Source: a virus (Duplodnaviria > Heunggongvirae > Uroviricota > Caudoviricetes). From it: a DNA stretch of 37,257 nucleotides. The notes beneath the pieces are model-generated. The model worked only from the letters and a program-made list of their open reading frames with translations, was not told where the DNA came from and made no database searches. Of this stretch, positions 1,224 to 5,076 are shown piece after piece; within the stretch, counting starts at the first letter, position 1; every line of letters starts with the position of its first letter. Where the stretch lies: IMG/VR virus record IMGVR_UViG_2917849834_000002. One strand, written 5' to 3'. The translations under genes and the position numbers were made by a program.

Positions 1224-2015
1224 TTATGGTTCGATCGCCGTTTTGAGCCGTTGTGTTGCTACATCAAAATAATGATCACTGGTTTCTATACCAATAAATT
1301 TGCGTCCTGCTTTCAGTGCAGCCACACCCGTTGTCCCTGACCCCATAAAAGGATCAAGGACTGTTCCGCCACTATTCACAGTCCTGACCAGTTCCGCCAT
1401 TAGTTCTTCTGGTTTTCCGGTCGGGTGCATTTTCTTTGACGGGATAACCGGGTACGTCATGCAGCCGTCGAACGGTCCCGAAGGTGATTTATCTAAATGG
1501 CCTTTGCTGCCCCAGACGATGTATTCGCACTGGTGCCGGAAATACCCGGTATGTGGTGTTCGTGACCCCCTCCCTTTGTTCCACGCAATGATGCCGCGCC
1601 ATGTAAAGCCACTGGCCTGAAACGCATCGGTTAAAGCTGGTAGTTGTCGCCAGTCAGTAAATACCAGGGCATAACCGCCCGGCCTGACTGCGCGGTGTGC
1701 CTGTGCCATCCATAATTGTGTCCAGTAAGCCCACGAACGGGCGTCCATGTTTTCACCCGCGAACCCATCAAAGCGGTGAAGGTTCTCGCCGTTCAGATAT
1801 TTTGCATGGCTGCCCTGGTTGGTGCGTCCGGCCTTGTGTGTCGCACCCGAACTGTAAGGCGGGTCAGTAATTAAGGCATCAATGCTTTCTGGCTCAATCA
1901 GCGGCAATATTTCCAGCGCATTTCCACGACAGAGCGTGGCATTGTCAGTCTGGTAAATCTTAGTGTGTTCCGGTGTATGTACTGGCTGGTGCTGGATTGC
2001 GATCCCCACGGTCAT
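1224..2015 (-). CDS. DNA methyltransferase (N6-adenine or N4-cytosine, beta class)
   Basis: 263 aa; DPPY catalytic motif (ITDPPYSSG) N-terminal to the AdoMet motif DPFMGSGTTGVAA; 5' end overlapped by the com-like ORF. Confidence 0.85.
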   Translation of the reverse strand: MTVGIAIQHQPVHTPEHTKIYQTDNATLCRGNALEILPLIEPESIDALITDPPYSSGATHKAGRTNQGSHAKYLNGENLHRFDGFAGENMDARSWAYWTQLWMAQAHRAVRPGGYALVFTDWRQLPALTDAFQASGFTWRGIIAWNKGRGSRTPHTGYFRHQCEYIVWGSKGHLDKSPSGPFDGCMTYPVIPSKKMHPTGKPEELMAELVRTVNSGGTVLDPFMGSGTTGVAALKAGRKFIGIETSDHYFDVATQRLKTAIEP

Positions 2016-2157
2016 AACTCCTCATGCGTGTGGGGTGCTCAATGGCTCTCGTTATCTGGTTAAGTGTTTTGCAGCGCGGACATTTTATTTCAATGTAGAG
2101 AAATGAGGCGCGGGCAAGTAGTTTGTTGCAATTTTTGCATCGTACATTTTGCGTCAT
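1960..2157 (-). CDS. com: Com-like zinc-finger translational regulator
   Basis: MTQNVRCKNCNKLL...IEIKCPRCK matches the Mu Com pattern (CxxC...CxxC); ATG at 2157 with SD GAGGTG 6 nt upstream; overlaps the methylase start as com overlaps mom in Mu. Confidence 0.75.
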   Translation of the reverse strand: MTQNVRCKNCNKLLARASFLYIEIKCPRCKTLNQITRAIEHPTRMRSYDRGDRNPAPASTYTGTH

Positions 2158-2284
2158 TTGCGGCACCTCTTGTGTGGTTACTGCTGCCGATATGATAGCA
2201 AATCGATCGTTTTTATCGATCGGATTTATTGCATCGATCTGTTATGCCTATTGCTTATGGGTGGTGCCCTCATTTGTGAGGACA

Positions 2285-2321
2285 CCAAAAAGAAAACCCG
2301 CAGTTTTTACGGTGCGGGTTT
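2285..2321 (-). terminator. Intrinsic terminator, probable 3' end of the hok-like mRNA
   Basis: 9-bp stem AAACCCGCA / TGCGGGTTT followed on the minus strand by UUUUCUUUUU. Confidence 0.5.
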
Positions 2322-2407
2322 GTTGTTCATGTCTGTCTGATAGGGTGCCTTATCGACCTTACCCTGGCAACCGATTGACGGGGGATTGCTCCCCCGTCGC
2401 GGTTTCC

Positions 2408-2548
2408 TTACTGCTTACACTGTAAGATCGCCGCAAACTCCGCTCCCCAGAAGCTCATCCGTATTTCACACAGCGAACCGTGTAGCATCCAGATGATGAG
2501 GATTGCCGTCACGCAGAACGTGATGGCTATAAGCGATTTTTGCGACAT
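2408..2548 (-). CDS. hok: Hok/Gef-family type I toxin (46 aa)
   Basis: Not in the ORF track (under 60 aa). Translation MSQKSLIAITFCVTAILIIWMLHGSLCEIRMSFWGAEFAAILQCKQ: one TM helix plus the conserved SLCEIR motif; SD AAGGAG 8 nt upstream. Confidence 0.7.
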   Translation of the reverse strand: MSQKSLIAITFCVTAILIIWMLHGSLCEIRMSFWGAEFAAILQCKQ

Positions 2549-2815
2549 AGCACTTGCTCCTTTTTTTGCAAAGGCGCTAAGCTCTTGCCCGCTTATTGAT
2601 TACGTTGTGAAACGCCCAGAGTTGAACATAAGGTTTAGTTGGGCCTTTTTACATCTGGCCTTCGTGTTTGCTGTCCAGCCATCAGTCGAAAGGTGTCCGC
2701 GTGAATTCTAGCCTGCTTTTTTTTCTTGCTTCAATACGTTGACTAATTTCAACACTCTGTTGTGCATATCCTGAACGCAGACATTATTCAGTCACGCATT
2801 TGATACATGCTTCCG

Positions 2816-2837
2816 CCGGCGTTCGCGCCGGTTTTTT
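2816..2837 (+). terminator. Intrinsic terminator with UUCG tetraloop; candidate 3' end of a Sok-like antisense RNA
   Basis: CCGGCG-TTCG-CGCCGG followed by TTTTTT on the plus strand, antisense to the expected hok mRNA leader. Confidence 0.45.
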
Positions 2838-3310
2838 GTCCTGTTGCTGCGTAGATCGTCATGTGCGATCGAGGCGCGGTATTGATCCTTTTTTCAGTTT
2901 AATTCTGGCTCTTGATTTTACGCAGGCCGCGCCGCGTCTGGCTTCTTTGTTTGATGGTTGTTTGATGCGATCCTTTAGTGATCGTTTTTCGTCTCGCGTA
3001 AAGCATGAAAACTCTTTTAATATCATGCTGTTTTATTGCTCCTGTCATTTGCGTGATCGTAAAAACCTCTCTGAAAACTGAAAAAAATTTCAAAGCGTGA
3101 AATTTCAGATCTTCGCTTTTCCCTCAGTTACTGCGCGGGCTGGCGGTCATTTTTGCACGGCAGAAAACTGAAAAAGTGTTTCGACACAAAACCCGCGGGT
3201 TGGAGGGGGTAGCGCGGTTTACGTCACCTCACGCTTTACGTCACACCGTTTACGCGGTATGTGCATACAGCGCCAGAATGGTATGCAGAACGCATTAATC
3301 AGGTGGTGGA

Positions 3311-3340
3311 TATGAAAACGCACGGTCGAAGCCGTGCGTT
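3311..3340 (-). terminator. Probable terminator of the late tail operon
   Basis: 9-bp stem AACGCACGG / CCGTGCGTT about 40 nt downstream of the last tail-operon stop, followed on the minus strand by UUUUCAU. Confidence 0.5.
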
Positions 3341-3378
3341 GTGTGGTGGGGCGTTTATGTGGCTTTTATGTCGGGTTA

Positions 3379-5076
3379 TCAGGCGATAAGGTCGCCGTAT
3401 TTTTCACGCAGACTCGTGGCCTGTTGGGCATCTGCGGCAAGTTCGCCGCTGTTCATCGGTGCGCCAGTGTTGCTGTGGGTGTGGTTTGCTGTATGTGTGG
3501 CCAGCAATTGAATCAGGTCCAGAATATCAGTCAGCAACGTCAGCAGGTTAAGCCCGGACTTTTCCCGCGAGCCGCTGCGACCAATAAACACTGTCGGGGC
3601 GGTAAACTCCAGACCGCCGTCCGCCCTGCATGTTCTGCGGCCTCCCACGTTTTCAGTCAGGTCGTGCTCAATCGTTGACGTTGCGCCTTTAAGTTTAGTC
3701 AGCAAATCCTGCGCCACCATCTGGATGTGTTCGCCGGCTGCGATCGCGTAATTGCCGGTAGTAAGGTGTTCTGTCTGGCCTGTCATCAGCTTGCTGGTAC
3801 CAAGAACACTGGTTATGTCGTTTGCCTGGACTGTTGTTGTTCTGGTTGTTGTTGTGCGTTCTTCCTGGTCGCTGTTAATGGTTCGCCTGGCAGAATGCTC
3901 CCTGATTTGCTGGTCGGTTTCCCTGTGCCAGCTTCCGTCAGTCGTGACACGCTGAAACACTTCTGCGCGCTGTTGCTGCAACTGTTCGCCGGGCTTTACA
4001 TCAGGCAGGTTATGTCCGGCAGGTAAGATTTGCCTGATGACAGGTTTATCCGGGCGGCCTTCAATACTGGATATTTCCACGATGGTGCCTGCCGGTGGGT
4101 AGGCAAAACATCCCGCCTCGCTACCAGCCATCGGGACAGGGAGCGGTACTGCCGGGTAAACAGGCGTATCGCTTTTGTCGTTGCCGTTCTCATCAAGCAG
4201 CTGCACGTCCACGGCGTAGCGTGGGCGGAAACTGTCGGCTACATCGCCCAGGGTGGCGGATTCCGTTGGTGCGACGACCCGCGCCAGTCTGGTGTGTAGT
4301 GTACCGCTGGCCAGTTCCGGAAACTGCGTTTCCATCTGTCTGCGCAATGGTGATTTGGAAACAGGGCTACCCGTGGCGGTGAGGCGCTCCCATGTCAGTG
4401 TCATTTTCTCGTTGTTGAGGGCTACACGGGTAATACGCCCGGCCGGAAGATTCACACCCGGCCGCACGGTTTCCATGAACATGATGTCGATGCTGTTTCC
4501 GCCGCTTTGCCCGAGTGTGTACTGTTGCGGAATATCGGGCATGGTAATGCTGGCAAACCGTGAATCAGCTGCGTTTCCCACAAATACAGAACCGTCCGGC
4601 ATGGGGTGCCAGACGTAATCGCTGATACTGAATGAGCGCCCCAGCTGGCTGAGTAACTGCGTCCCGCTGCCGCTGTGGGTGATGTAGGGAGTTGGTGTGC
4701 TGACATAATCCGCATCTGGCGTGATAAAAACGATACCGCTTTGTCGCCCCAGATTATCGAGCACATCCCGCAACGTCGGGTGTTGCATGGAGCAGGGGAA
4801 ATCAAAATCCAGCACAGCAGCTGCTTCACGGATAAAAAGGCGACGTGAGCCATTTTCGGCCGGTTGATCGCGTTCTATGTAGCCAGAGAAATAGCGCCAG
4901 GCCTCACCATTACGGCCGAGATCGATTTGCACCATTGCGCCGGCAAGGCTTTTTTCTGGTGACAGATTGTTAACAGAAACGAAGCCGCGACCGGCAGCAT
5001 TCAGGGTGAGAGCAAGGCTGATATCGGCAATTTCCACCTGTTCGCCATTGATCATGCAGCGTTGTATCAATTTCAT
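3379..5076 (-). CDS. Putative tail/baseplate hub protein (possibly gpD-like) with long C-terminal extension
   Basis: 565 aa, last gene of the late operon, ATGA-coupled to the upstream gene; N-terminal LALTLNAAGRGF and HPTLRDVLDNLG resemble gpD/Mu gp44 motifs from memory. Family assignment is weak. Confidence 0.35.
   Translation of the reverse strand: MKLIQRCMINGEQVEIADISLALTLNAAGRGFVSVNNLSPEKSLAGAMVQIDLGRNGEAWRYFSGYIERDQPAENGSRRLFIREAAAVLDFDFPCSMQHPTLRDVLDNLGRQSGIVFITPDADYVSTPTPYITHSGSGTQLLSQLGRSFSISDYVWHPMPDGSVFVGNAADSRFASITMPDIPQQYTLGQSGGNSIDIMFMETVRPGVNLPAGRITRVALNNEKMTLTWERLTATGSPVSKSPLRRQMETQFPELASGTLHTRLARVVAPTESATLGDVADSFRPRYAVDVQLLDENGNDKSDTPVYPAVPLPVPMAGSEAGCFAYPPAGTIVEISSIEGRPDKPVIRQILPAGHNLPDVKPGEQLQQQRAEVFQRVTTDGSWHRETDQQIREHSARRTINSDQEERTTTTRTTTVQANDITSVLGTSKLMTGQTEHLTTGNYAIAAGEHIQMVAQDLLTKLKGATSTIEHDLTENVGGRRTCRADGGLEFTAPTVFIGRSGSREKSGLNLLTLLTDILDLIQLLATHTANHTHSNTGAPMNSGELAADAQQATSLREKYGDLIA

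Follow-up and report, generated by a model that had tools for sequence, protein, structure and literature searches.

A Hok/Gef toxin gene at one end of a P2-like prophage

The DNA analysed here, referred to as the window, is a stretch of 37,257 nucleotides that constitutes a complete P2-like prophage, with PHROG matches to an integrase, a gpA-type replication protein, a terminase, a major head protein, a tape measure, a tail fibre and the baseplate. Inspection of the minus strand reveals the order baseplate gene (3379..5076, the last of its kind), hok, com, DNA methyltransferase and host flk, where com encodes a Mu-Com-like zinc-ribbon protein, the methyltransferase is of the N6/N4 type, and flk, which adjoins the prophage, shows 86% identity to E. 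coli. The hok module is accessory cargo that shares the att-proximal end of the prophage, beside flk, with the com-DNA methyltransferase operon, as an initial sequence-only reading of the locus as cargo at the prophage end had held. The features assigned to the locus are as follows.

2705..2734, minus strand: hok promoter from a promoter scan, with -35 TTGAAG (2734-2729), an 18-nt A-rich spacer and -10 TAGAAT (2710-2705)
2287..2698, minus strand: predicted full-length hok mRNA of ~410 nt, from the conservation limits in 44 loci
2685..2698, minus strand: 5' 'tac'-like element, GGACACCUUUCGAC here and GGGUGCCUUUCGGC in homologues
2649..2663, minus strand: vestigial mok-like initiation site, GAAGG and ATG (2654-2652) with TAA (2651-2649) directly after
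2549..2580, minus strand: hairpin sequestering the hok ribosome-binding site, UUAGCGCCUUU...AAAGGAG..GUGCUA, with GGAG at 2560-2557
2408..2548, minus strand: hok coding sequence, 46 amino acids plus stop, peptide MSQKSLIAITFCVTAILIIWMLHGSLCEIRMSFWGAEFAAILQCKQ
2377..2398, minus strand: post-stop stem-loop, -19.7 kcal/mol, z -5.5
2343..2358, minus strand: fold-back ('fbi'-like) element, GGUCGAUAAGGCACCC
2287..2321, minus strand: intrinsic terminator of the hok mRNA, stem-loop from 2321 to 2294 and U-tract to 2287
2554..2583, plus strand: Sok-type promoter, with -35 TTGCTC (2554-2559), an 18-nt spacer and -10 TAAGCT (2578-2583)
2590..2650, plus strand: predicted Sok-like antisense RNA of ~60 nt, with hairpin 2614-2644 and CUUUUU tail 2645-2650
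2815..2838, plus strand: terminator-like hairpin with a UUCG loop and T6, GCCGGCG-TTCG-CGCCGGT (2815..2832) followed by TTTTTTG

The 46-residue frame, the only Hok-like open reading frame in the window, had first been assigned to the Hok family from its SLCEIR motif, and that assignment holds. The motif is present in the translation, and comparison with the Hok/Gef family gives a match to Pfam PF01848 (HOK_GEF) of 28.7 bits, above the gathering cutoff of 22 bits, which aligns residues 6-44 to model positions 4-42 of 42. PHROG 251 ('MokW-like host killing') matches over the full length with an E value of 7e-21. The peptide has the layout of Hok/Gef proteins, namely one N-terminal hydrophobic helix (hydrophobic stretch at residues 6-22), an (S/D)LCE motif (SLCEIR at residues 25-30, with Cys27) and a second, C-terminal cysteine (Cys44); the role of the two cysteines of Hok has been described (bioRxiv 10.1101/2025.08.07.668861). 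The GGAG ribosome-binding site stands 8 nt 5' of the ATG. The best NCBIfam match is HokA (NF007290), and the peptide shares with HokA of E. coli K-12 the W-M-x-x-x-S-L-C-E core, the C-terminal AAFL-x-C motif and both cysteines. Its score of 29.7 bits nevertheless lies so far below the equivalog cutoff of 89 that the window hok is not a HokA orthologue.

The gene is missing from the first track of open reading frames, and to that extent it is unannotated as first described; publicly, an identical protein is already annotated (WP_135488995.1/TGB75188.1, 'Hok/Gef family protein', Escherichia sp. E4702), and all 165 members of its 90% cluster are named Hok/Gef. The survey of Hok proteins by Escalera-Maurer et al. 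(bioRxiv 10.1101/2025.08.07.668861, 2025-26) catalogues the subfamily as identity cluster 72 and cloned two of its members (72_1621 and 72_1589) for toxicity assays. In that survey 42 of the 45 homologues tested were toxic, the three non-toxic ones coming from other clusters, while mok, Sok and mRNA structure were not analysed. The 45 included cluster-72 peptides that share 44 of 46 residues with the window peptide. The window peptide has the length of 46 residues, the termini and the GGAG site of cluster 72 and is identical to 72_1621 at 44 of 46 positions, from which it differs by T7I and F41I; its leader and Sok region, in contrast, are strongly diverged from those of the common alleles. 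Members of the subfamily, which is closest to HokA, reside in prophages, phages and plasmids of Escherichia, Salmonella and Citrobacter, and RefSeq lists them as 'Hok/Gef family protein' (WP_135488995.1, WP_000078904.1 and WP_000078916.1). Given the Pfam and PHROG matches, the identical annotated protein and the surveyed subfamily, the reading frame is, on homology, a genuine Hok/Gef toxin-family peptide, and the locus is already known. The idea of a chance open frame flanked by the hairpins of unrelated terminators, which the shortness of the frame and the modest single-sequence fold z-scores of some elements might invite, has a negligible probability and is already refuted by homology, with family-level HMM matches above curated thresholds and the same flanking RNA elements common to hundreds of conserved homologues.

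Predicted architecture of the hok mRNA

To define the limits of the module, 44 distinct homologous loci were aligned, and a consensus fold was derived from 42 full-length mRNAs. Conservation begins abruptly at the -35 hexamer of the hok promoter and finishes at the terminator (~2734 to 2287). The hexamers keep their positions (TTGAAG, TTGCCG or TTGCCC; TAGAAT, TAGATT or TAAATT) despite unrelated upstream flanks, and the promoter appears to be of the sigma-70 type, with a predicted transcription start at ~2698. In the minimum-free-energy fold of the predicted mRNA, the 5' end pairs with the 3' region, and the same is seen in the consensus fold, where GGGUGCCUUUCGG at the 5' end joins ..GAUAAGGCACCC in a 3' element. 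A local hairpin (UUAGCGCCUCC...GGAG..GCGCUA) encloses both the start codon of hok and its ribosome-binding site. Across all consensus helices, 98.4% of cells hold standard pairs, compared with 33-54% when the partners are slid by 1-3 columns.

Individual helices are conserved to a similar degree. The pairing of the tac-like with the fold-back element is kept in 97.5% of cells over 40 distinct sequences, with wobble changes tolerated, which answers the initial suggestion to search for a fold-back element by RNA folding. The hairpin around the ribosome-binding site consists of two helices that are 99.6% and 97.5% paired and contain many G-C to G-U changes, and the post-stop stem-loop shows changes on both sides at three pairs, in 6, 3 and 1 sequences, respectively. 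The terminator (-12.4 kcal/mol, z -1.8) is kept in most homologues; the minus-strand terminator placed at 2285..2321 by the first reading does belong to the hok mRNA. In IMG/VR, many predicted prophage contigs stop exactly 3 nt past the hok stop codon (L021, L028, L030 and ~40 other loci), evidently because the boundary was set at the last gene, such that the hok 3' UTR with its fold-back element and terminator is cut off.

A candidate Sok-like antisense gene within the leader

The plus strand opposite the hok leader carries a candidate Sok-like antisense gene that lies inside the hok module (2554-2650). The -35 hexamer of its promoter faces the nucleotides that separate the hok ribosome-binding site from the ATG, and a promoter occupies the same place in all 25 distinct leader variants (TTGCTC, 17 nt, TAACCT), as does TTGCGC, 17 nt, TATCCT at the equivalent position of the R1-type plasmid locus. 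The hexamers in the window are weak (3/6 each) and were missed by a generic promoter scan. The predicted RNA would carry a single-stranded 5' tail of ~20-24 nt before its hairpin, with a start that is uncertain by ~3 nt, and would be complementary, over its whole length, to the leader segment that directly follows the conserved mok-like start codon. Its predicted 3' end falls ~48 nt inside the hok mRNA, where R1-type Sok ends ~60 nt inside its target.

Folding of this region favours the plus strand (-13.9 kcal/mol versus -8.7 kcal/mol for the minus strand), with z values of -2.66 for the 47-nt core and -1.2 for the whole RNA. The hairpin and its U-tail are present inside the hok leader in 25 of 25 distinct leader variants. 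The hairpin comes in four sequence types, all of which keep the stem paired, and at 3 pairs both partners have changed in a compensatory manner. A scan of 1900-3400 against Rfam at E<=10 gave no Sok match and returned terminator-like noise only, in the form of Thr/Leu leader models on the hok terminator.

The first reading had instead placed the end of a Sok-like RNA at the plus-strand UUCG hairpin, which it located at 2816..2837. The hairpin itself is real: 6 of its 7 pairs are G-C, it folds at -12.9 kcal/mol (z -2.05), and its position is 117-140 nt upstream of the predicted hok start and ~165-190 nt past the predicted Sok 3' end. That the antitoxin is a long plus-strand RNA ending there is nonetheless very improbable. 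Such an RNA would be ~250 nt long, with over half of it upstream of the hok transcript and so with no pairing target. The hairpin lies outside the module as delimited by conservation, which starts at ~2734; it is conserved only within the prophage lineage of the window (L001, L007, L008) and does not precede the hok module in P88-like phages, Stx phages or plasmids, whereas every leader variant has a promoter and a U-tailed hairpin of its own inside the leader. The long-antisense reading draws on the quality of the UUCG hairpin as a terminator, the first strong one on the plus strand past the Sok promoter, and on the poor tail (CUUUCC) that follows the Sok hairpin in homologues, but the Sok hairpin of the window has a better tail, of U5. 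No other good plus-strand terminator was found between 2650 and 2815, and a T-run opposite the hok promoter spacer was dismissed as a Sok terminator for want of a convincing preceding hairpin. As no strong plus-strand terminator separates it from Sok, the UUCG hairpin may at most serve as a backstop that stops antisense read-through before the tail genes.

Relatives and genomic context

E. coli chromosomes contain copies of the 651-nt hok region that are 95% identical and have the order baseplate, hok, com, methyltransferase and host DNA, and PGAP calls a Hok/Gef gene at the equivalent position of the 95%-identical locus. At least 12 E. coli genomes and another Escherichia species carry the allele at 95-99% identity. 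Farther copies (75-86% identity) occur in P88-like/Xuanwuvirus phages, Stx phages and plasmids, and in phage Chuche the trio of hok, com and methyltransferase adjoins the integrase. Near-identical enterobacterial hok loci (72-93% peptide identity) also appear in a Planococcaceae MAG (L010, contig of 4.2 kb), a Vagococcus sp. (L011, 226 kb) and Xanthomonas pisi (L014, 0.9 kb); at least for the short contigs L010 and L014, contamination seems the likeliest explanation.

Several observations concern the surroundings of the module. In some relatives of the prophage, such as that of E. coli K_EC180 (L008, 2127-2423), a TM2-domain gene lies between the hok terminator and com, which indicates that the spot accepts further cargo. 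The com-methyltransferase operon has a promoter-like sequence (TCGATA, 16 nt, TG-TATCAT at 2219-2192 on the minus strand, within the region 2190-2245), and three GATCGAT repeats (GATC at 2205, 2218 and 2236) overlap this site or immediately precede it. These repeats recall the mom promoter of phage Mu, where repression by OxyR is governed by three Dam sites; the Com protein of the window matches Mu Com (Pfam PF10122, E 3e-12). Neither Hok nor Com matched any defence model in PADLOC.

The ~640 nt (2735-3378) that separate the baseplate gene from the hok promoter hold no conserved reading frame or annotation. Of 5426 complete E. coli genomes, only ~50 have this segment, at 90-97% identity, and the phage collection gave no match to it. 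It contains the minus-strand terminator of the tail operon (~3336-3310), a CCCGCGGG-TTTT hairpin (~3198-3180) and the plus-strand hairpin at 2815-2838. A frame of 55 amino acids within it was rejected as a gene, given that its ATG is lost in close relatives and that it has neither a phage-database match nor an annotation in E. coli.

Comparison with known hok systems

The hok/mok/sok (parB) locus of R1 provides the closest parallel for the organization described above. Both loci encode a Hok/Gef peptide on an mRNA of ~400 nt, predicted for the window, and the pairing of the 5' and 3' ends is a trait that R1 has in common with the window subfamily at large; both place a stable hairpin after the stop codon and then a terminator, and both have a cis-antisense RNA of ~60 nt, again predicted for the window, whose -35 hexamer is at the hok ribosome-binding region and whose end lies ~50-60 nt into the mRNA. 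The R1 counterparts of the RNA elements are the tac/fbi end-pairing, the anti-SD hairpin and the protective 3' hairpin of the processed hok mRNA (PMC9841398). The two differ in several respects. The window peptide has 46 residues compared with 52 in R1, and the similarity is at the Pfam level only. The leader frame starts 102-106 nt upstream of hok rather than 58 nt, and in the subfamily this start occupies the 3' rather than the 5' end of the stretch complementary to Sok. In the window, moreover, the leader frame is a bare start-stop, the 5' element is mismatched and the hok ribosome-binding site itself lies within a hairpin. An R1-type locus on an IncF plasmid (L006, NZ_CP128973.1, 540-760) has its leader ATG in frame with hok, through a spacer that is 1 nt shorter than in R1; at this locus, PGAP annotates a 33-amino-acid C-terminal fragment (658-759) alone, out of a Hok of 52 amino acids.

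A second point of comparison is hokW/sokW of the Sakai prophage Sp5 (PMC8621323), which is likewise a prophage-borne hok/sok type I module and gives the PHROG family its name. HokW has 51 amino acids and belongs to a lambdoid Stx2 phage, in contrast to the P2-like prophage of the window, and Stx phages also carry a separate 46-amino-acid homologue of the window subfamily (L003).

Leader frame, 5' element and Sok hairpin of the window allele

Against the conserved background of the subfamily, the window allele shows three alterations. The first of these is the mok-like frame. Nearly all homologues have a GAAGGCC(A/G)G-ATG motif 102-106 nt upstream of hok, and the frame that it opens has 61-79 codons and overlaps hok, in the classical mok arrangement, in 6 of 44 loci. 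In 33 loci the frame has 17-29 codons and stops short of the hok ribosome-binding site, and nothing but ATG and a stop codon is left of it in the window, in its two closest relatives (L001 and L017) and in L005. The mok-like element sought after the first reading is accordingly there as a conserved start site, but its frame in the window is only ATG-TAA and does not extend to the hok initiation region. A view that the locus has no mok at all was dropped on account of the conserved GAAGG-N4-ATG, which opens hok-overlapping frames in some relatives.

The second alteration affects the pairing of the mRNA ends. The 5' element reads GGACACC in the window, as opposed to GGGUGCC in 39 of 42 aligned mRNAs (GGAUGCC in L003), while the fold-back partner is unchanged. 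The three substitutions are all transitions that turn G-C or U-A pairs between 2685-2698 and 2343-2358 (minus strand) into A.C/C.A mismatches; these are uncompensated and remove 3 of 7 core pairs. The 5'/3' duplex amounts to -14.4 kcal/mol in the window compared with -25.5 kcal/mol in L007, and a weaker alternative pairing of CCUUUCGAC with GUCGAUAAGG (-14.4 kcal/mol) is available in the window. A new 5-bp pairing of UCGAC with GUCGA adjoins the substitutions. The sequence GGTGTCC (2277-2271) was considered as compensation for the altered 5' element and rejected, given its position past the terminator and its absence from L001, which has the 5' variant too. The third alteration is a Sok hairpin of ~-14 kcal/mol, compared with ~-31 kcal/mol in homologues.

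The start-stop leader, the mismatched 5' element and the weak Sok hairpin together suggest, by analogy with R1, that the window allele may be partly silenced. In its strongest form, this reading makes the locus a genuine hok/sok derivative that is translationally silent, a relic or 'safe' allele from which Hok is never made natively and which has no phenotype. On this view, translation of the leader frame would be needed to free the hok ribosome-binding site, and an unaltered 5' element to allow activating refolding of the mRNA. We regard such complete silence as a serious rival, albeit an unlikely one. It is consistent with the start-stop leader frame that the window shares with L001 and L017 and with the three mismatches that leave the 5'/3' duplex ~11 kcal/mol weaker than in L007. 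Hok production in R1 is abolished by stop codons in mok ahead of hok and likewise by substitutions at 5' positions 4-6 (PMC9841398), so that premature mok stops and substitutions at the 5' end are loss-of-function changes there, and chromosomal hok loci unable to kill have been reported, as cited in a passage of the Hok survey (bioRxiv 10.1101/2025.08.07.668861).

Three lines of evidence oppose complete silence. The hok reading frame, ribosome-binding site, Sok promoter and hairpin, 3' stem-loop and terminator are all intact; the allele persists across the E. coli genomes and the different Escherichia species noted above; and the 33 homologous loci with leader frames truncated to 17-29 codons keep both hok and Sok intact. 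On the strength of the intact elements, the persistence of the allele and the short leaders of most relatives, an active module is retained as the best reading. That so many loci with a truncated leader frame keep hok and Sok also means that a long mok frame may be unnecessary in this subfamily, although outright dispensability of the mok leader frame there strikes us as rather doubtful.

Proposed model and significance

Taken together, the locus is very likely a hok/sok-type type I toxin-antitoxin module of the 46-amino-acid 'MSQKSL...WGAEFAAFLQCKQ' subfamily, which is cluster 72 of Escalera-Maurer et al., carried as accessory cargo of a P2-like prophage. In the mechanism that we propose, transcription from the promoter at 2734-2705 would yield the ~410-nt mRNA, whose 5' end would pair with the 3' fold-back element. 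By analogy with R1 (PMC9841398), the full-length mRNA would be inert until 3' trimming takes away the fold-back element and the leader refolds. Sok would then bind the leader just downstream of the start of the leader frame, which would block initiation and lead to decay by RNase III, and the loss of Sok would allow Hok to be made and to damage the inner membrane. For the prophage, the module may contribute to stabilization or retention, to the exclusion of other phages, or to lysis in the manner of hokW, which helps lysis in Sp5 (PMC8621323).

The hok locus represents a known kind of small toxin gene that is routinely missed by short-ORF filters and whose antisense partner is easily misplaced. 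The practical value of the analysis is a precise map of the module, such that the toxin gene and the ~60-nt antisense gene are not overlooked or mis-assigned, and its importance beyond correct annotation is small. If loci of this kind are active without a long mok frame, Sok must act on hok other than by blocking mok-coupled translation, and candidate routes are cleavage of the leader by RNase III and, as with tisB/IstR-1, occlusion of a standby site for ribosomes. Among relatives of the window, the mok frame ranges over all stages between full length and a bare start-stop, and the subfamily would therefore offer a natural test of whether the control of Hok needs mok-coupled translation.
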